Positions 8,056 to 46,729 of a DNA stretch of 64,000 nucleotides are shown one piece after another. Both the position numbers and the translations under genes were made by a program. This DNA is from a phage: assembly GCA_019326865.1 (NCBI GenBank), contig GCA_019326865.1_4101.1. The stretch is one strand, 5' to 3'. Within the stretch, counting starts at the first letter, position 1; each line of letters opens with the position of its first letter. A model generated the notes under the pieces. That model was not told the DNA's origin and did no database searches. It saw only the letters and a list, made by a program, of their open reading frames with translations.

Positions 8056-9231
8056 ATGTCACAACTACTAAATGAATCCAAATGGGTAGCAGTAAAAGAG
8101 AAACTAGTTGAAGGTCTACAGGGTACTCGTAAGTCTGTAATGGAAACTGTTCTTGATAACCATCGTAAAGTTATGCTAACTGAATCCGCAACTTCTGGTG
8201 CAACTACCGCTGGTAATATCGCTACACTAAACAAAGTGATTCTACCAATTATGCGTCGTGTAATGCCAACTGTTATTGCTAACGAAATTATCGGTGTTCA
8301 GCCTATGACTGGTCCAGTCGGTCAAATTCACACCCTACGTGTACAATATGCTGATAATGCACCTGGTGTTATCGCTGGTGAAGAAATGCTTTCTCCATAC
8401 AAAATCGCTAAATCCTACTCTGGTGAACTAAATTCTGATAACAGCAATCCTCAAGCTGCTCCTACTAGCCAACTAGAAGGTACTATGGGTCGTCGCGTTA
8501 ACATCCGTATTCTACGTGAAACTGTTGAAGCGAAATCTCGTCGTCTATCTGCACGTTGGACTGTTGAATCTGCACAAGATGCTCAATCCCAACATGGTGT
8601 TGACGTTGAAGCAGAACTAATGGCTGCAATCGCTCAAGAAGTTACCGTAGAAATCGACCAAGAGCTACTAAGCCGTCTACGTGCACTACCAGGTGCTGCT
8701 GCTGTAACTTATGACCAATCTAAAGTTACTGGTGTTGCAACCTTCGTTGGTGATGAGCACGCTGCTCTAGCAACTCTAATTAACCGTCAAGCAAACGAAG
8801 TTGCTCGTCGTACTAAGCGTGGTGCTGCAAACTGGGCTGTTGTTTCCCCAACTGCACTAACCATTCTACAATCTGCTACTACTTCTAGCTTTGCACGTAC
8901 CACTGAAGGTACTTTCGAAGCACCAACTAACGTTAAGTTTGTAGGTACTCTAAACAGCACTATGCGTATTTTTGTTGATACTTATGCAAGTGATTCAGAA
9001 GATATTCTAATTGGTTATAAAGGTAATGCAGAAACTGATGCTGGTGTGTTTTATTGCCCATACATCCCACTAATGGCGTCCGGTACTGTAATGGACCCTA
9101 ACACTGGAGAACTCGTAACCACTTTCTTAACCAGATACGGGTACGTTCAGTTGACCGATAGCACCAGTTCACTAGGTAACGCTGCTGACTACTACAGCAA
9201 AATCGCTATCAAAAACGTTACTTTCATGTAA
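8056..9231 (+). CDS. gp23: major capsid protein (T4 gp23 family, compact 391 aa)
   Basis: IANEIIGVQPMTGPVGQIHTLRVQY vs T4 gp23 IAFDICGVQPMNSPTGQVFALRAVY; RILRETVEAKSRRLSA vs RIDKQVIEAKSRQLKA; ILIGYKGNAETDAGVFYCPYIPL vs FTVGYKGPNEMDAGIYYAPYVAL. Confidence 0.9.
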   Translation: MSQLLNESKWVAVKEKLVEGLQGTRKSVMETVLDNHRKVMLTESATSGATTAGNIATLNKVILPIMRRVMPTVIANEIIGVQPMTGPVGQIHTLRVQYADNAPGVIAGEEMLSPYKIAKSYSGELNSDNSNPQAAPTSQLEGTMGRRVNIRILRETVEAKSRRLSARWTVESAQDAQSQHGVDVEAELMAAIAQEVTVEIDQELLSRLRALPGAAAVTYDQSKVTGVATFVGDEHAALATLINRQANEVARRTKRGAANWAVVSPTALTILQSATTSSFARTTEGTFEAPTNVKFVGTLNSTMRIFVDTYASDSEDILIGYKGNAETDAGVFYCPYIPLMASGTVMDPNTGELVTTFLTRYGYVQLTDSTSSLGNAADYYSKIAIKNVTFM

Positions 9232-9274: not shown

Positions 9275-9302
9275 AGGGACTCTTCGGAGTCCCTTTTTTT
9301 TG
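9275..9302 (+). terminator. rho-independent terminator after capsid gene
   Basis: agggactc-ttcg-gagtccct hairpin followed by a T-run. Confidence 0.75.
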
Positions 9303-9324: not shown

Positions 9325-9353
9325 TTGACAGCACTTAACAATTGTAGTATCAT
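9325..9353 (+). promoter_or_regulatory. sigma70-like promoter TTGACA-N17-TATCAT
   Basis: ttgaca at 9325-9330, tatcat at 9348-9353; sits upstream of the GTG start at 9388. Confidence 0.5.
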
Positions 9354-9387: not shown

Positions 9388-10983
9388 GTGTTAGAAGAAA
9401 TCAAGAAGTTTTTATCAGAGAAAAATGTTCGTGGTGTTAAATCTGCTCTGCAAGCAAAATCTGTATACATTGAATTCCTGCGAGAGATGTTTGGTGATAT
9501 CGATCTTAATGAAATGATTTATATGGTATTGAATGATATTACTTCAGTGCCGAATGCTGAATGTGGTGACAAAGCTAAGTTTATAAGTATTACCGAAGGA
9601 TATTCTTACAAGTGCAATAAACCATTTCAAGGAAAAGGAAAATGCCTTATCTGTTGCTCCGCAGTTGCTAGGAAACGTAAAGAAACTTACAAAGAAAAAA
9701 CTGGTTATGATAACCCGGCACAGAATCCAGAAATTCAAAAGAAAATAGGGTATACCAATGAACAACGTTATGGCACTCGTATTGCTCAACAATCTGAACA
9801 AGTAAAGCAGAAATCAATAGAAACTAATATCAAAAAGTATGGCGTTGTTCATCCATCACAGTTGGAAAGTAATAAACAGCAACGTTTACAAACTGTACAA
9901 GAAAAGTATGGTATCAATAATGTATGGCAACTTAATAAAGGTCTTAGTGCACGTTATGAACAGTTTAAAACACGATTTGAACAGGATGGTAAATTTACTC
10001 TTTTAAGTGATGAATCCCATTATGATAATAGCAATGACGCAACTCATGCAATCATGCACTGGAAATGTAATGAATGTGGTAATGAGTTTGATAAAGTTGC
10101 TCTTTGCTTACGCTGCCCTAAGTGTGAACCATATTCATCCAGTACTGAAGAAGTTAATCTTTATAATTACATTACCTCTATCTATAGTGGTGTTGTTATT
10201 CAAAACAGCCGCAACATAATCAAAGGTAATGAAATTGATATTTTCATCCCAGAACTGAAACTTGGTATTGAGTTCAATGGTGAGTACTGGCATCGTGATG
10301 AAGTTCGTGGTAAAGACTATCATCAATCCAAATACTTCAAAATGAAGGAAGCAGGATACAAACTTATCACTATCTATAGTAATGAATGGTCAAATAAAAC
10401 TGAAATTGTTAAGAATCGTTTGAAAAGTTTGATTAGTGTGGATAGTAAAATCTATGCTCGTAAGTGTGAAGTTAGATTGGTTGTACATGAAGAATGTGAT
10501 AAATTTTTGTATGAACATCATATTCAAGGACCATGCCAATCATCAATCAAACTTGGACTTTACTATAATGATGATTTGGTTGCTTTGATGACATTTGGTG
10601 CACCACGATTTAACAAGCAGTATGAATATGAATTACTGCGTTATTGTTCTAAAGGAACAGTTGTTGGGGGTGCATCGAAACTGTTAAAACATTTTGAACG
10701 TATGTATCTTCCTAAATCTCTTCTTTCATACGCCGATATGAACTGGAGTACTGGTAATTTGTATGAAAAAATTGGTTTTACTTTAGAAGAAGTAACTCAA
10801 CCTGGTTATTTTTACTATGATAGAAAAAACGAAGTTGTTTATTCTCGCCATCAATGCCAAAAACAAAAACTTATTAAAAAATATAATTTTGATAGTTCTA
10901 TGACAGAGAAGGAAATGACAAAAGAATTAGGATACTTTAGAATCTATGATTGTGGTAACTTAGTTTATAAAAAGATTTACTAA
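9388..10983 (+). CDS. multi-domain putative nuclease, paralog 1 of 3 (Cys clusters, YGV repeats, Vsr/DUF559-like PD-(D/E)xK core, conserved C-terminal domain)
   Basis: GTG start with RBS ggaga 5 nt upstream; N-terminus VLEEIKKFLSEKN aligns with paralog 3 MIIDELKKFLKSKN; core motif IDIFIPELKLGIEFNGEYWH; C-terminal domain shared with 30327..31931 and 44978..46729. Confidence 0.7.
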   Translation: MLEEIKKFLSEKNVRGVKSALQAKSVYIEFLREMFGDIDLNEMIYMVLNDITSVPNAECGDKAKFISITEGYSYKCNKPFQGKGKCLICCSAVARKRKETYKEKTGYDNPAQNPEIQKKIGYTNEQRYGTRIAQQSEQVKQKSIETNIKKYGVVHPSQLESNKQQRLQTVQEKYGINNVWQLNKGLSARYEQFKTRFEQDGKFTLLSDESHYDNSNDATHAIMHWKCNECGNEFDKVALCLRCPKCEPYSSSTEEVNLYNYITSIYSGVVIQNSRNIIKGNEIDIFIPELKLGIEFNGEYWHRDEVRGKDYHQSKYFKMKEAGYKLITIYSNEWSNKTEIVKNRLKSLISVDSKIYARKCEVRLVVHEECDKFLYEHHIQGPCQSSIKLGLYYNDDLVALMTFGAPRFNKQYEYELLRYCSKGTVVGGASKLLKHFERMYLPKSLLSYADMNWSTGNLYEKIGFTLEEVTQPGYFYYDRKNEVVYSRHQCQKQKLIKKYNFDSSMTEKEMTKELGYFRIYDCGNLVYKKIY

Positions 10984-11351: not shown

Positions 11352-11390
11352 TAGATAAATATCTCCATATTAATGATGGAGATTGAATCT

Positions 11391-11699
11391 ATGTCACAGA
11401 TATGTTATGTTATAATAAACTCTGCATGGCCTGACTATGTTAAGATTGGTTTCACTTCTAAATCTGAAATGACAGAGCGTTTGAGAACGTATCAGACAGC
11501 TACCCCGTTTCGTGATTTTGAAGTTTATCATGAAGTTCACTTTGAAGACGCACGTTTAGCTGAAAAAGAGATACATAAAAGGCTTAAACAAATGAATGCA
11601 ACTAGACAACCAAACACGGAGTGGTTTAAAATGTCTAAAAAAATAGCAGCAAACATCATTGATTCTGTGTGGGATGATATGGATAACGACTTGCTATAG
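11391..11699 (+). CDS. T5orf172 / GIY-YIG-superfamily-like small protein
   Basis: ICYVIINSAWPDYVKIGFT...RLRTYQTATP...EIHKRLK...EWFK fits the T5orf172 pattern as I recall it; RBS ggaga 9 nt before ATG 11391. Confidence 0.5.
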   Translation: MSQICYVIINSAWPDYVKIGFTSKSEMTERLRTYQTATPFRDFEVYHEVHFEDARLAEKEIHKRLKQMNATRQPNTEWFKMSKKIAANIIDSVWDDMDNDLL

Positions 11700-29153: not shown

Positions 29154-30275
29154 ATGAAAATGACAAGTGGTTTTGCGAACATTCTTAAAAACAGTACTGG
29201 TAGTGTAAAAAAGAATACTGGTGTTAGTGTTGGATTTCATGATCCAGATACATGGGTTAGTACTGGTAACTATGCACTAAATTACCGTATCAGTGGTTAT
29301 TTTGACCGTGGTATCCCACTAGGTAAAGTAACTATGTTTGCTGGTGAATCAGGTAGTGGTAAATCTTTTATTGTATCCGGTAACATCGCACGTGAAGCTC
29401 AACAACAAGGTATTTTTGTTGTAATGATTGACACAGAGAATGCTTTGGATTCAGATTGGCTACAAGCTCTTGGTGTTGACACTTCTGAAGAAAAACTTCT
29501 TAAAGTTAATATGGGTATGATTGGTGATGTAGCCAAATTCACTTATGAATTTATTGAAGGATATCGCAAAGAGTACGAAAATACACCTAAAGATGAACGC
29601 CAAAAAGTATTGTTCATTATCGATTCGATTGGTATGCTTAATACTGAAGTATCTAATGATCAAATGAAGGCTGGTAATCTTAAAGGTGATATGGGACATA
29701 AACCTAAGCAGCTAAAAGCATATATTACTAACTGTGTGAATTCTATTGGTTCACTAAATATTGGAATGGTTTGTGTGAACCATTCGTATGAATCACAGGA
29801 TATGTTTAATCCAGATCCTAAAGTGTCTGGTGGTAGTGGTTTGATTTATGCATCATCAATGGTGATTGCAATGGGTAAACTAAAACTAAAAGAAGATGAG
29901 GATGGTAATAAAACTTCCGATGTGAGTGGTATTCGCTCCAAATGTAAAGTTATGAAAACTCGTTATAATAAACCATTCGAGGAAGTCGAGATTAAGATTC
30001 CTTGGGATAAAGGTATGGACCCGCGTAGTGGTTTGTTGGATATGTTTGAAAAATATGGACTTATTGTTAAATCAGGTAACCGATTGATGTATGTTGATAT
30101 CGACACTGGTGAGCAAATCTTGAAATACCGCAAAGAATGGATGCGTAACGATGATTTATGTTTGGATTTGGTAATGCATCAATTTAAACGTCACCCACTG
30201 ATTGAAGAAGTCAAAGAGGAAGAAAAAGGTGATGAATCTTTTGGTGTAGATAGTTCAACTGATAGTACTGAATAA
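29154..30275 (+). CDS. uvsX: UvsX recombinase (RecA-like)
   Basis: Walker A GESGSGKS; DPRSGLLDMFEKYGLIVKSGNRLMY vs T4 UvsX DPYSGLLDMALELGFVVKPKNGWY. Confidence 0.9.
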   Translation: MKMTSGFANILKNSTGSVKKNTGVSVGFHDPDTWVSTGNYALNYRISGYFDRGIPLGKVTMFAGESGSGKSFIVSGNIAREAQQQGIFVVMIDTENALDSDWLQALGVDTSEEKLLKVNMGMIGDVAKFTYEFIEGYRKEYENTPKDERQKVLFIIDSIGMLNTEVSNDQMKAGNLKGDMGHKPKQLKAYITNCVNSIGSLNIGMVCVNHSYESQDMFNPDPKVSGGSGLIYASSMVIAMGKLKLKEDEDGNKTSDVSGIRSKCKVMKTRYNKPFEEVEIKIPWDKGMDPRSGLLDMFEKYGLIVKSGNRLMYVDIDTGEQILKYRKEWMRNDDLCLDLVMHQFKRHPLIEEVKEEEKGDESFGVDSSTDSTE

Positions 30276-30285
30276 TGATATGTTA

Positions 30286-30316
30286 TATGAATGGCCCGTA
30301 TGGGTCATTCTTTTTT
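30286..30316 (+). terminator. hairpin plus T-run overlapping the annotated 5' end of ORF 30291
   Basis: gaatggccc-gtat-gggtcattc followed by ttttttg; this is why the downstream start is placed at 30327. Confidence 0.55.
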
Positions 30317-30326
30317 GAGGATGTGT

Positions 30327-31931
30327 ATGATTGATATATCCAAATTATATAATATGATAAAAGACATTCCCCATCCTAATTCTCGTAAAAAAATACTAAT
30401 GGGGGAAATTTCCGAAGAAGATATGATGGAGTTCGGAACAACTGAATTAAAGCAGATTGATTATTGTATAATGAATAAATTAAAACATGTACCATTAGCA
30501 CCGTGCGGGGAAAATAAAAAATACCATAATGGAAAATATTTGAATGTATGTGAAAAATATAAACTTGGTGACAATCATTCATGTATAGTCTGTCATGAAA
30601 ATAAGACAAAAGAAACATTATCTAAAATGAAGAAAACTTCTTTATCTAAATATCAAACTGAATTTCCTAATCAGTCCATTGATGTAAAAAGAAAGATACG
30701 AGAAAATTCTAATTTTACTGAAGATGAAAAAAACGCAATTAATGAAAAGAAAAAAGAAACATCATTGAAACAATTCGGTACTGAACATCCAATGAAGAAT
30801 AGTACTGTTAAGTTGACACAAATTCAGTCCAGAAAAAAGACACAAGAGCAAACTAACAACAAAAGAATTAAAACTTTAATGCAGAAAAAAACATTAAATG
30901 TTTCTGAAAATTTGGATAAATCAAAATATGAAATTGTTGAATTGCGATTGGGGACTAATGTAAAAAGTACATTCAGGTGTTTACAGTGTGGACAACAATT
31001 TGATGCATTAAGTCATTGGGGATGTAAAGTTGTTTACTGTCCACAATGTGATGTTTCACCTATGCGTTCTAATATGGAAAATGATGTTGTATCTATCATA
31101 AAAGAAATAGAACCAACTATTGATATTGAACTTAATAATAGAAAAATCATAAAACCAAAAGAAATAGATATATATTTGCCTAAGTATAATTTGGGTATAG
31201 AAGTTAATGGAATGTACTGGCATTCTGATAAATTTAAGTCAGAAAACTATCATCAAGATAAAGTTAAAGCTGCTATGTCATCTGGAATGAAATTATTAAC
31301 AATTTATGATTATGATCTTTCAAAAAACAAAGATGTAATAGTTTCAATGATAAAAAATTCAATGAATAAATCTTCTTTTAATGTTTATGCAAGAAAATGT
31401 GAAATTAAAGAAGTACCTAAAGTTGAAGAACGTAATTTCCTAAACACCTATCATATTCAAGGATTTGTTGGTTCAAATATTTGTTATGGTTTGTATTATA
31501 ATTGCGAGTTAGTATCATTAATGTCTTTTGGTAAGCCAAGATTTAATAAAAATTTTGAATATGAAATTATACGATTTTGTTCAAAAGGTAATGTTGTTGG
31601 TGCAGCAGGGAAGTTATTAAAACATTTTGAGATAACTATCAAGCCTAAGTCATTGATTACATATGCTGATTTACGATATGGATATGGTAAAACTTATGAA
31701 AAAATAGGTTTTGAATACAAATATATTACTAAACCTGGATATTTTTATGTTAATGGAAAGGGTGATGTGGTTACTCGATATCAAGCACAAAAACATAAAC
31801 TTCTGAAGAAATACCCAGAATATCAAAATGAGACAAACATTACTGAATATGATATAATGGGGTCTGAAGGATATTTAAAGATATATGATTGTGGAAACGC
31901 TGTGTATGTGAAGGAATACAACAATGAATAA
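30327..31931 (+). CDS. multi-domain putative nuclease, paralog 2 of 3
   Basis: RBS gagg 6 nt before ATG 30327; core motif IDIYLPKYNLGIEVNGMYWH; C-terminal domain VYARKCEI...HIQG...FGKPRFNKNFEYEIIRFCSKGNVVGAAGKLLKHFE matches paralogs 1 and 3. Confidence 0.7.
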   Translation: MIDISKLYNMIKDIPHPNSRKKILMGEISEEDMMEFGTTELKQIDYCIMNKLKHVPLAPCGENKKYHNGKYLNVCEKYKLGDNHSCIVCHENKTKETLSKMKKTSLSKYQTEFPNQSIDVKRKIRENSNFTEDEKNAINEKKKETSLKQFGTEHPMKNSTVKLTQIQSRKKTQEQTNNKRIKTLMQKKTLNVSENLDKSKYEIVELRLGTNVKSTFRCLQCGQQFDALSHWGCKVVYCPQCDVSPMRSNMENDVVSIIKEIEPTIDIELNNRKIIKPKEIDIYLPKYNLGIEVNGMYWHSDKFKSENYHQDKVKAAMSSGMKLLTIYDYDLSKNKDVIVSMIKNSMNKSSFNVYARKCEIKEVPKVEERNFLNTYHIQGFVGSNICYGLYYNCELVSLMSFGKPRFNKNFEYEIIRFCSKGNVVGAAGKLLKHFEITIKPKSLITYADLRYGYGKTYEKIGFEYKYITKPGYFYVNGKGDVVTRYQAQKHKLLKKYPEYQNETNITEYDIMGSEGYLKIYDCGNAVYVKEYNNE

Positions 31932-44307: not shown

Positions 44308-44981
44308 ATTACGAATATGATCAACAATCAGTCAATCAGATGGCTGATTTGTTAAGTGGTCTTAATGATATTGAAGCTGGTGAGACACATGATGCGGCTG
44401 GTGTACCATATAAAGCTAGTGGTGATATTGGTGCAATGACTGCTATTTTAACTTCATTAAATGAAGCGGGTATGGATTATGGTATTGAACCTGAACAGAC
44501 ACATCCGAAGGTTGTGTCATATAACGCACCATTTAACGAACACATGAATGGACAACAACATGTTCAGCCTGTGATGCAACGTTCACCTTCTAAACCGAAA
44601 ACCAATTGGAGTTTAGTAGAAGAAAAGGTACAAGGCACGAAATCTACTAAAGTTTATAGTATTAAGTGTAACCATAGTTCACAAATTATCATGAATAATA
44701 TTATGATGTATGAAGCAGCACTTACTTTAGTTAACCTTCTTAACGAAGGGCGAATGTTGACAGATGCTAAAGTTCTTGGTATAATTAGTTCGGGTTTGCA
44801 ATACACAAATGTAATAAGCGAAGCATTAAAAGCAGCCCATAAACGCCAACGTGTACTTAATGAATCAAAGTATGATGAAGCAAAAGATTTAGATATAATC
44901 ATTGCAGAAAAGAAAGCAGAAGCGTATAAATTAAAAGAGCGTGTATTAAACTTTCTTAAAAATGAAGGGTACATCACTTGA
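44304..44981 (+). CDS. hypothetical protein
   Basis: 225-aa ORF. Confidence 0.45.
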   Translation: MNYEYDQQSVNQMADLLSGLNDIEAGETHDAAGVPYKASGDIGAMTAILTSLNEAGMDYGIEPEQTHPKVVSYNAPFNEHMNGQQHVQPVMQRSPSKPKTNWSLVEEKVQGTKSTKVYSIKCNHSSQIIMNNIMMYEAALTLVNLLNEGRMLTDAKVLGIISSGLQYTNVISEALKAAHKRQRVLNESKYDEAKDLDIIIAEKKAEAYKLKERVLNFLKNEGYIT

Positions 44982-46729
44982 TTATAGATGAATTGAAGAA
45001 ATTCTTAAAAAGCAAAAACAAAAAAACATGGGTTAAGTTGGTAAGCAATAATGAAGTGTATTTTAAATATGTTCGTGAATTATTCCCAACTAAACCCATG
45101 AATGAAGCATTGTATCTTATAATGAACGATATGGTATGTGCACCATCTGCCCCATGTGGCTCTGAATGTAAATTTATTAATGGTTCATATGATAAGTATT
45201 GTTCTAAGCCAACAAAACCAAACAAAAATCGTGATAATGGTTTTTGTGTAGTATGCAATGAGCATTGGAAGAACGCCAAACTCAAAAATACTAAACAAAA
45301 ATGCCTTGATGCTTATGGAGTCGAATATCATTGGCAAAGAAATGATGTGAAGGACAAAATAAAAAGTACTAATATGAAACGATATGGCGTTGAGCACAAT
45401 TCGCATATCGAACATGTTCTTGAAAAAAGAAAGGAAACCTTCATTAAAAGATATGGTGTTGAATCACCTTTAGCATCTGTTGAAATTCGTGATAAGATAA
45501 AAGCAACAAACATTGAAAAATATGGTGTTGAAAATTATGGAAGTACTGATGAATGTATAGAAAAACGAAATAAAACAATGATGGATTTATATGGTGTTAA
45601 TAATGCACAACATGTAACGAAATTTTTAAATGAATCAAAGGTTACGAAAGCTAAAATTAGGTATGATAAAATTTTATCTATTATTAACCCTTCATATAAA
45701 GAACTTTTTGAATATGATGACTTGATAGATTCAACTAATGAAAGTAAACTTCCGTATTATTGTGAAATACACAAAGGGCTGTTTTATAGTAATTATAAAT
45801 ATGGTATAGTTTGTAGTGTTTGTAATCCACCCGTGTATAGTTCCATACAAAATGAAATAAAGAATTTTGTATCAACATTGACTGAATGTGACATTATTAT
45901 GAATGATCGAAGTAATGGGTATGAATATGATATATACATCCCTGAACTCCAGATAGCAATAGAAGTTAATGGAATGTATTGGCACAAAAGTGATATGGTT
46001 GATAAGTATTATCATAGGACAAAAACAATAAATTCGATTGAACGTGGAATTAGATTGATACATATATTTGAAGATGAATGGTACAGTAAACAGGAAATTA
46101 TTAAAAATAGATTAATGAACGTTTTTCAATGTTCTAGTAAGATTTATGCCAGAAAATGTATTGTTAAAAAAATTAACACAAATATTTGTTATGATTTCTT
46201 GAACACTAATCACATACAAGGATATACTAAAACTGGAATAAACTATGGTTTGTTTTATAAACAAGAACTGATTGCAGTAATGACGTTCAGTAAAAGTCGA
46301 TATGATAAAAAATTTGAATATGAGCTAATACGATATTGCTCACGTGGAACGGTTGTTGGTGGGGCTGGTAAATTATTGTCTGCATTTGAGCGTGATTACA
46401 AACCATTGTCGTTGATGAGCTACGCAGACTTGAATTGGGGTTCTGGGCAGTTATACATATCTCTTAATTTTGAAAATTTGGGATATACCGAACCCAAATA
46501 TTTTTATTATGATCCAAAAACAAAACAGCGTTTTTCTAGACAAAAATTTAGAAAACATAAATTGATTGAAATGGGCCACGACTCATCTAAAACTGAAGAA
46601 GAGATATGCTTAGGTGAAATTGGATTGTATAAAATATACGATTCTGGCAATTGCAAATTTGCTAAATATTATTACAACATAAACATTACAGGAGATATTG
46701 AAAAATGTCCAAATCGTACAAAAAACTAA
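44978..46729 (+). CDS. multi-domain putative nuclease, paralog 3 of 3
   Basis: TTG start overlapping the upstream stop, RBS gaaggg 8 nt upstream; YGV repeats (RYGVEHNSH, RYGVESPLA, KYGVENYGS, LYGVNNAQH); core motif YDIYIPELQIAIEVNGMYWH; C-terminal domain conserved with paralogs 1 and 2. Confidence 0.7.
   Translation: MIIDELKKFLKSKNKKTWVKLVSNNEVYFKYVRELFPTKPMNEALYLIMNDMVCAPSAPCGSECKFINGSYDKYCSKPTKPNKNRDNGFCVVCNEHWKNAKLKNTKQKCLDAYGVEYHWQRNDVKDKIKSTNMKRYGVEHNSHIEHVLEKRKETFIKRYGVESPLASVEIRDKIKATNIEKYGVENYGSTDECIEKRNKTMMDLYGVNNAQHVTKFLNESKVTKAKIRYDKILSIINPSYKELFEYDDLIDSTNESKLPYYCEIHKGLFYSNYKYGIVCSVCNPPVYSSIQNEIKNFVSTLTECDIIMNDRSNGYEYDIYIPELQIAIEVNGMYWHKSDMVDKYYHRTKTINSIERGIRLIHIFEDEWYSKQEIIKNRLMNVFQCSSKIYARKCIVKKINTNICYDFLNTNHIQGYTKTGINYGLFYKQELIAVMTFSKSRYDKKFEYELIRYCSRGTVVGGAGKLLSAFERDYKPLSLMSYADLNWGSGQLYISLNFENLGYTEPKYFYYDPKTKQRFSRQKFRKHKLIEMGHDSSKTEEEICLGEIGLYKIYDSGNCKFAKYYYNINITGDIEKCPNRTKN

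Follow-up and report, generated by a model that had tools for sequence, protein, structure and literature searches.

Three Probable Homing Endonuclease Genes of the Hef Family, Each Ending in a Mom-Like Domain, in an Asteriusvirus Jumbo Coliphage

Three Hef Genes and Their Family

We describe three related genes, here called HefA, HefB, and HefC, in a 64,000-nucleotide stretch of phage DNA (contig GCA_019326865.1_4101.1 of NCBI GenBank assembly GCA_019326865.1), referred to below as the window; all coordinates are window positions and all features given lie on the + strand. HefA (9388..10983; 531 amino acids, GTG start) is a gene of the free-standing Hef homing endonuclease type in the slot after the major capsid gene, HefB (30327..31931; 534 amino acids, ATG start) sits exactly between uvsX and uvsY, and HefC (44978..46729; 583 amino acids) has a TTG start that overlaps the upstream stop and a 3' end that overlaps the start of the next gene. 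The three are intact paralogues, with pairwise identities of 34-37% over nearly their full length (tblastn, E 1e-74 to 1e-100); when all three are aligned, identity to the first of them is 39%. No fourth copy was detected in the window by tblastn. An earlier reading of the bare letters (the original prediction) had delimited the same three open reading frames and ascribed one architecture to them, and in this the open reading frames, the tblastn matches, and the alignment bear it out. A recent duplication of hef within this genome was considered and rejected at so low an identity between the copies. By megablast, the phage is an Asteriusvirus, one of the 121Q/PBECO4-like jumbo coliphages of ~350 kb, with UE-S1 and ph0011 as the closest records. 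The window does hold the T4-like core genes gp23, uvsX, and uvsY, but the phage is not T4-like in the narrow sense.

The three open reading frames belong to the Hef/EDxHD family, which is known and abundant, HefB being a new allele. They match PHROG 3339, "homing endonuclease", from end to end (HefA, E 4e-132; HefB, E 5e-107; HefC, E 4e-134) and PHROG 559 over their C-terminal four-fifths (E 1e-75 to 1e-90); in Bastillevirinae, group I introns carry members of PHROG 559 (PMC11878797). Homologues were found by tblastn in 424 phage records, many of them labelled "Hef-like homing endonuclease", "hef", or "homing endonuclease EDxHD", and a PADLOC run on the Hef proteins returned a homing-endonuclease model as its sole match. 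Tequatrovirus G8 carries a full-length homologue between nrdA and nrdB. By the title of Sandegren et al. 2005, hef reportedly replaces mobE. The nrdA/nrdB position is the mobE slot of T4 (PMC2790892), and Hef-type enzymes were placed in the Vsr-like EDxHD family by Taylor et al. 2011 (PMC3239194). Hef (homing endonuclease-like function) of the T4-related phage U5 and the genes annotated as Hef-like in RaK2, K64-1, Campylobacter Fletchervirus/Firehammervirus, LIMEstone, and others are homologous to the window genes over their full length (tblastn coverage 89-100%) and, like them, are free-standing between conserved genes and present in several copies per genome; they differ in an identity of merely 30-46%, and the slots in the window are not the nrdA/nrdB slot of T4-type Hef. 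Located in the HefC slot, RaK2 hef shares 46% identity with HefC along 92% of its length. For HefB, identity to deposited phages stays at or below 38% and to metagenomic proteins at or below 48%, apart from one 99%-identical copy. Thus a family that the original prediction took to be unrecognised is PHROG 3339/559, already annotated as Hef-like or EDxHD in many phage records; the size that it found unusual is, together with the full architecture, the family norm (its C-terminal domain alone has 16,930 cluster representatives, mostly in proteins of 400-700 amino acids); and its three copies in 37 kb are hardly exceptional when Campylobacter phages hold 11-12 matching places in ~130 kb.

Domain Architecture and the Nuclease Core

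The full-length AlphaFold model of HefA (mean predicted local distance difference test, pLDDT, 95.1) has six parts: a four-helix N-terminal bundle, a Cys-bearing β-hairpin, five long helices, a second zinc ribbon, an α/β nuclease domain, and a GNAT domain. Conservation was counted throughout in an alignment of 122 family members, reaching down to 33% identity to HefA overall (40-68% within the C-terminal domain). The N-terminal bundle comprises residues 1-48 (9388..9531) in the model. It is followed by a first Cys cluster, C59, C76, C86, and C89, carried on the β-hairpin (residues 55-90, 9550..9657; from the model and conservation), of which C59, C76, and C86 are at least 90% conserved; this cluster is probably a zinc ribbon. 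Residues 87-198 (9646..9981) are built of 23-residue repeats, each a helix plus a YG(V)xxP loop, that correspond to the five long helices of the model and to Pfam DUF7487, which matches HefA (E 2e-12) and HefC (E 2e-19) and returns no HefB match. The period of 23 residues is strict in HefA (repeats at residues 104, 127, 150, and 173) and in HefC (135, 158, 181, and 204), and the repeats are degenerate in HefB; we regard the stretch as a putative DNA-recognition array. The second zinc ribbon of HefA (residues 222-250, 10051..10137) carries C227, C230, C243, and C246, and is recognised from conservation (at least 90% for C227, C243, and C246) and from weak zinc-ribbon Pfam matches; the cluster reads CxxC...CxxC in HefA and HefB and CxxH...CxxC in HefC. 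The nuclease core of all three proteins contains the motif IDI(Y/F)(I/L)P...IE(V/F)NG.YWH, and the C-terminal block of ~180 residues (YARKC...HIQG...YAD) is well conserved in each of them. All the motifs listed at the outset are present in the alignment, with the reservation that the YG(V) repeats are degenerate in HefB.

In other family members the N-terminal part is swapped for treble-clef zinc fingers, DUF723, or NUMOD-like modules, while the zinc ribbon, the nuclease, and the Mom-like core described below are retained. A swappable N-terminus joined to a constant core is the layout usual for modular homing endonucleases; specificity would then come from the N-terminus, and the Mom-like domain would be part of the working core. 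The variable N-terminal part of the window proteins (helical bundle, zinc ribbon, and YG(V) repeats) is accordingly likely to be the target-recognition module.

Judged by its sequence, the core of HefA, HefB, and HefC is a predicted Vsr-like nuclease of the PD-(D/E)xK type. The domain spans residues 252-349 of HefA (10141..10434), where it is Vsr-like of the EDxHD type by a profile match to PDB 3r3p, approximately residues 249-346 of HefB (31071..31364; from alignment with HefA), and approximately residues 286-383 of HefC (45833..46126; from alignment with HefA and from Pfam). PDB 3r3p is the catalytic domain of I-Bth0305I, the enzyme that serves as prototype of the Vsr-like EDxHD homing endonucleases, and was matched at E 4e-7 with a profile of the three Hef proteins and at E 0.002 with a single sequence. 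The catalytic Asp and His of I-Bth0305I (D196 and H213, mutated in the 3r3p crystal construct) align with D284 and H302 of HefA. Across the family, E295, H302, and K315 are each present in 122 of the 122 sequences, H312 in 121, and E282 and D284 in 120 each, and all are intact in HefA, HefB, and HefC; the EDxHD positions E255/E282, D284, N297, and H302 are likewise conserved, with Gln at position 255 in HefC. I-Bth0305I thus resembles the Hef proteins in its Vsr-like core, in the aligned positions of the catalytic Glu, Asp, Asn, and His, in its phage origin, and in its modular DNA-binding N-terminus; unlike them, it is intron-encoded, has 266 amino acids and NUMOD/helix-turn-helix modules, and is without a GNAT domain. 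When the full-length model was compared with known structures (Foldseek), only GNAT matches were returned, so that neither the nuclease domain nor the YG(V) repeats gained a fold match of their own; the nuclease assignment rests on sequence profiles. Pfam REase_MTES_1575 is reached by the window proteins at sub-threshold scores only (22-25 bits vs. a cut-off of 38.2), DUF559 by the G8 homologue at 16.4 bits vs. a cut-off of 20.6, again below threshold, and for Pfam Vsr (PF03852) no match to the Hef proteins is listed at E<=1; an NCBIfam search of the same proteins gave nothing meaningful. A core of the Vsr/DUF559 type, as originally proposed, is in this way upheld as Vsr-like by the 3r3p profile match, but not by the Vsr and DUF559 thresholds of Pfam.

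The C-Terminal Mom-Like Domain

The C-terminal domain, left without assignment in the original prediction, is a Mom-family GNAT domain. It covers residues 354-531 of HefA (10447..10980; from AlphaFold, Foldseek, and hhalign), and corresponds to 31377..31928 in HefB and, by alignment, to 46139..46672 in HefC. When HefA residues 348-531 were modelled by AlphaFold from 122 sequences (pLDDT 95.5), the best match of the model in the PDB was the crystal structure of phage Mu Mom, 8bv8 (Foldseek, E 4e-7, TM 0.61), generic GNATs following at E 1e-4 or worse. In the comparison of profiles by hhalign, the Hef domain matches a profile of 120 Mom relatives with 92.7% probability (E 4e-7, 119 columns), but a single Mom sequence (that of Mu, taken from NC_000929) with 24% probability only, so that the match is convincing only with the Mom-family profile. 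Pfam PF25680 (Mom family) gives no hit at E<=1 for HefA, HefB, or HefC; two homologues, P0018 and P0075, pass it with 32.4 and 30.1 bits vs. a cut-off of 27.1. The Hef domain is found in 16,930 cluster representatives at E<=1e-3, nearly always at the C-terminus of proteins of 400-700 amino acids. A few proteins of ~215 amino acids (P0399, P0441, and P0480) are 46-51% identical to it and contain little else; they may be Mom-like enzymes that stand alone and are close kin of the fused domain, or else genes that were called too short.

The glycine-rich loop before helix 3 (G427, G428, and A429) is conserved in the 122 sequences, and we take it to resemble the loop of GNAT motif A that binds cofactor phosphates. 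Mom itself is a tight dimer and modifies double-stranded DNA directly using Gly-tRNA-Gly, as shown in 2026, and needs H58, R111, S124, D149, R151, and Y159 for activity, R151A having no detectable activity (PMC13219725). Three of these positions are invariant in the 122 sequences, H58 corresponding to H378 of HefA, R111 to R418, and Y159 to Y459. D149 corresponds to D450, an Asp in 101 of the 122 and in all three window proteins. The position of R151, residue 452, is Arg in 67 of the 122; HefB has this Arg and with it retains the Asp-x-Arg pair (ADLR), and HefA and HefC have Asn. For S124 two placements disagree, one opposite V426 (hhalign) and one near G428 (in the register of GNAT motif A); residue 430, the candidate, is a Ser in HefA (S430) but a Gly in the other two proteins. 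Mu Mom (8bv8; PF25680) and the Hef domain share a GNAT fold and the equivalents of H58, R111, D149, and Y159, and may also have an extra two-helix insertion in common. Unlike the Hef domain, Mu Mom is stand-alone, not fused to a nuclease, and has RNSESR where Hef has the canonical glycine loop, while HefA and HefC, unlike Mu Mom, are without the R151 equivalent. In the HefA model, the two extra helices (residues 492-499 and 507-514) lie between late strands, beyond the end of the hhalign alignment; in Mom, a helix-turn-helix-like insertion is essential for momylation. The dimer-contact residue W48 of Mom is not conserved in the Hef domain.

Fusions of this kind have been described. Mom domains fused to restriction endonuclease-fold nucleases in jumbo phages were reported by Iyer, Anantharaman, Krishnan, Burroughs, and Aravind in 2021, who read them as restriction-modification-like conflict systems (PMC7824862). 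Architecture and phage class are the same, and the three Hef proteins are instances of these Mom-REase fusions.

Insertion Slots and Slot-Specific Lineages

At all three slots the insertion junctions are precise and empty alleles exist. Slot 1 is bordered by the capsid-gene terminator, a hairpin at 9275..9294 that is conserved in all relatives and marks the left edge of the variable slot, and by the start of the next gene, both borders being kept in all relatives. Between them PBECO4 has ~40 bp (an empty slot), 121Q an unrelated gene, and UE-S1, ph0011, and the window a Hef gene, the ph0011 orthologue of HefA being 66% identical. The 121Q gene (gp604; locus L003, 1879-2976) encodes an unrelated protein of 365 amino acids with treble-clef zinc fingers (DUF4379 and DUF723), which T5orf172 matches weakly; nuclease genes of different kinds thus share this slot, which makes it a hot spot. 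At slot 2, the uvsX stop and the uvsY start overlap in empty relatives (TAATG), and HefB is inserted exactly there, its own stop overlapping the uvsY start. No record of the phage collection carries a gene in this slot, none covering 80% of the query, and 29 of the 30 listed records show the empty-slot span; the uvsX/uvsY junction of UE-S1 is empty too. Slot 3 is filled by HefC in UE-S1 and ph0011, that is, in 2 of the 32 relatives listed, the other 30 showing the empty-slot span. Its neighbours in the 121Q annotation are the gene of a hypothetical protein and that of a virion structural protein, so that the original placement of the genes holds for the slots after the capsid gene and after uvsX, but the third does not lie among small early genes. 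The proposed comparison of flanking DNA with relatives that lack the genes was thus informative, revealing precise insertions into slots that are empty in most close relatives. The two findings that could have told against the original prediction, a core without any Vsr-type match and a vertically inherited core gene, both failed to appear.

Each gene also has relatives bound to its own slot. HefA relatives of 48% identity stand directly after gp23 on two metagenomic contigs, and HefB relatives of 44-48% just upstream of uvsY on two others, one of which shows the gene between recA/uvsX and uvsY; RaK2 hef lies, in another genus, between orthologues of the genes that flank HefC. In the HefB-slot lineage, Hef is 44% identical vs. 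94% for UvsX, and in the HefA-slot lineage, 48% vs. 77% for the capsid protein. In these two slots Hef diverges much faster than its neighbours. The selfish part of the proliferating selfish family originally envisaged is supported by the precise insertions and the empty slots; recent duplication within the genome is not, given copies of ~35% identity that each have a slot lineage of their own.

In slots 1 and 2 the neighbouring gene carries a divergence tract of ~250 bp, on the upstream side only, the downstream flanks being nearly identical to the empty alleles. Next to HefA, mostly synonymous substitutions are clustered where the capsid gene ends (8976..9175), and the last 86 codons of this gene show 26 synonymous and 1 nonsynonymous codon differences from PBECO4. 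Next to HefB it is the diverged 3' end of uvsX (30034..30275), with 5-13 mismatches per 40 nt relative to ph0011, against 0-2 upstream; the tract includes amino-acid changes, and some of its variants are shared with a second Hef-bearing contig. Both tracts are candidate target or co-conversion regions.

Several further observations concern these neighbourhoods. One metagenomic contig, SRR31729320_40141 (locus L011, 2-1878), has two tandem Hef-like genes upstream of uvsY, and the partial open reading frame that precedes P0241 there has a typical Mom-like C-terminus (…YQKIYDSGNLVYIKKYKE). UE-S1 has an extra gene of 239 amino acids between uvsY and the exonuclease gene (locus L006, 1993-2712), absent from the window, with weak DUF723 and thioredoxin-like matches; this too may be a mobile insert. 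At 11373-11699 (+), two genes past HefA on the downstream side, the window encodes a stand-alone T5orf172/MUG113 (GIY-YIG-like) protein of 108 amino acids (Pfam E 4e-13), labelled GIY-YIG nuclease family protein in relatives.

Gene Starts and Composition

The start codons first assigned, GTG, ATG, and TTG, prove reasonable. The HefA GTG at 9388 has a GGAGA ribosome-binding site before it, and in the alignment the ph0011 orthologue begins, with an ATG, at the same place. The longest HefA open reading frame opens at an upstream TTG (9325), which is also the -35 hexamer of a promoter-like site, TTGACA-17-TATCAT (9325..9353; 11 of 12 matches), located inside the insert just past the capsid-gene terminator and 35 nt before the GTG; the site is a consensus match only, and promoter-like sites are no more numerous in the HefA region than in shuffled sequence. 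The UE-S1 record annotates its HefA orthologue from the corresponding upstream start, as 552 amino acids, a call that is probably 21 codons too long. The HefB ATG at 30327 has a GAGGA site upstream, and the 99%-identical database protein is called at the same 534 amino acids. The 51-nt spacer between uvsX and HefB (30276-30326) contains a short GC-rich inverted repeat and a T-run (GGCCCGTATGGGTCATTCTTTTTT), then the GAGGA, and may be a terminator and ribosome-binding site carried in with the insert. For HefC, the TTG that overlaps the upstream stop is the start retained. The Hef genes are AT-richer than their surroundings, with GC contents of 32.8% (HefA), 27.7% (HefB), and 29.7% (HefC) vs. 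a window average of 34% and 35-43% in the flanking genes.

Discussion

The three open reading frames are most likely free-standing homing endonuclease genes of the Hef/Vsr-like EDxHD family in an Asteriusvirus jumbo coliphage. The observations behind this reading are the shared architecture, the intact nuclease residues, the precise insertions, the presence and absence of each gene among relatives, the slot-specific lineages, and the upstream tracts at two slots; from these we infer that HefA, HefB, and HefC cleave DNA, where their targets lie, and that they home. Selfish behaviour of the three genes is well supported. In a co-infection with a relative that is without hef, the enzyme would cleave the competitor's DNA within or close to the conserved gene beside the slot, which for HefA means the 3' end of the capsid gene and for HefB that of uvsX, while HefC would act at the third slot. 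Recombinational repair from the Hef-bearing genome would then copy the gene, along with some flanking sequence, into the empty slot. Within this scheme, membership of the constant core and the conservation of Mom-type pocket residues make it probable that the Mom-like domain binds DNA at a flipped adenine, which it may also modify. Its role could be adenine recognition, DNA modification (for self-immunity or in the manner of restriction-modification), or dimerisation; a passive linker fits poorly with a conserved pocket and a position in the constant core.

Several points weigh against a homing function, or against parts of the evidence for it. The final Asp of EDxHD (D222 of I-Bth0305I, D97 of Vsr) falls opposite His312 in both HMMER alignments, a position that is His in 121 of the 122 sequences; the substitution runs across the 122 sequences compared, so the window proteins are not singled out by it, and the motif of the Hef clade is therefore E-D-x-H-H. 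In the third slot, HefC and RaK2 hef (46% identity) are nearly as similar as the genes that flank them (49-58%), and long vertical retention with repeated loss would fit there too. The capsid-gene tract is a mosaic among five phages and does not track the presence of Hef cleanly. The homing experiments on Hef of Sandegren et al. 2005 are cited second-hand, through PMC3296691 and PMC3239194. Finally, a homing endonuclease has no obvious need of a GNAT domain with conserved active-site residues.

It is possible, if somewhat doubtful, that the Mom-like domain is catalytically dead and purely structural, either a dimerisation module that pairs two nicking domains or a DNA clamp. The domain is part of the constant core, and it is the N-terminal modules that vary; dimers are formed by Mom (PMC13219725) and are the active form of I-Bth0305I (PMC3239194); HefA and HefC have no R151 equivalent, a position that varies across the family. 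Since Mom W48 is not conserved, any interface would differ from that of Mom. What a scaffold hardly explains is the invariance of the H58, R111, and Y159 equivalents, together with the glycine loop, across sequences as distant as 33% identity.

The opposite view of the same domain, that Hef is bifunctional and that an active Mom-like adenine modifier, dependent on aminoacyl-tRNA or acyl-CoA, marks the enzyme's own target sites and so confers self-immunity, seems to us rather unlikely. Were it true, it would answer how the phage's own genome escapes cutting when the insertion leaves the target undisrupted, and homing and restriction-modification would be two faces of one enzyme.

Distinctly unlikely, as the main role, is a single-chain weapon resembling restriction-modification, in which the Mom domain marks the phage's adenines, the nuclease destroys unmodified DNA of the host or of a superinfecting phage, and the benefit falls to the phage, although such a role can coexist with homing. 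This is the published interpretation of the Mom-nuclease fusions of jumbo phages (PMC7824862), and it draws on a C-terminal domain that is a genuine relative of Mom, on its conserved glycine loop and on the equivalents of H58, R111, and Y159, with D149 and R151 kept in the proportions given above, and on the direct modification of double-stranded DNA by Mom with Gly-tRNA-Gly (PMC13219725). Yet close relatives should keep a useful protective system, and most of them are without each copy; the slot-specific lineages tie each enzyme to one position, which is a hallmark of homing; HefA and HefC have Asn at the position of R151, whose replacement by Ala abolishes detectable activity in Mom (PMC13219725); the window proteins have no Pfam Mom score at E<=1; and PADLOC matched no defence or anti-defence model. 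The sporadic and slot-bound distribution argues against general protective restriction-modification as the main role, and where Iyer et al. 2021 saw conflict systems, the slot-specific lineages and empty alleles found here favour homing. That these are ordinary, vertically inherited phage genes with a role in repair, for example in Vsr-type mismatch nicking, is highly improbable, for although the fold is Vsr-like and the HefC lineage is old, with the same slot in a second genus, most close relatives are without a given hef where the junction is in other respects collinear (a pattern that contradicts this view), 121Q has an unrelated nuclease in the slot of HefA, the flanking genes change far more slowly than Hef, and no Pfam Vsr (PF03852) match is listed at E<=1.

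The nuclease assignment and the Mom fusion are each already in the literature, and the three genes are in themselves mostly a matter of routine annotation. What joins them is that the Hef/EDxHD homing endonucleases and the "Mom-REase fusions" are the same proteins, which links two separate annotations; in the literature searched, we did not find this identity stated. Since modification of double-stranded DNA by Mom has been shown, the equivalents of H58, R111, D149, and Y159 are kept, and the C-terminal domain of the family has nearly 17,000 cluster representatives, DNA modification by homing endonucleases becomes directly testable. In the window phage, three variants that differ naturally at R151 and at the candidate S124 position are at hand for this, and empty-slot alleles that could serve as substrates are known.

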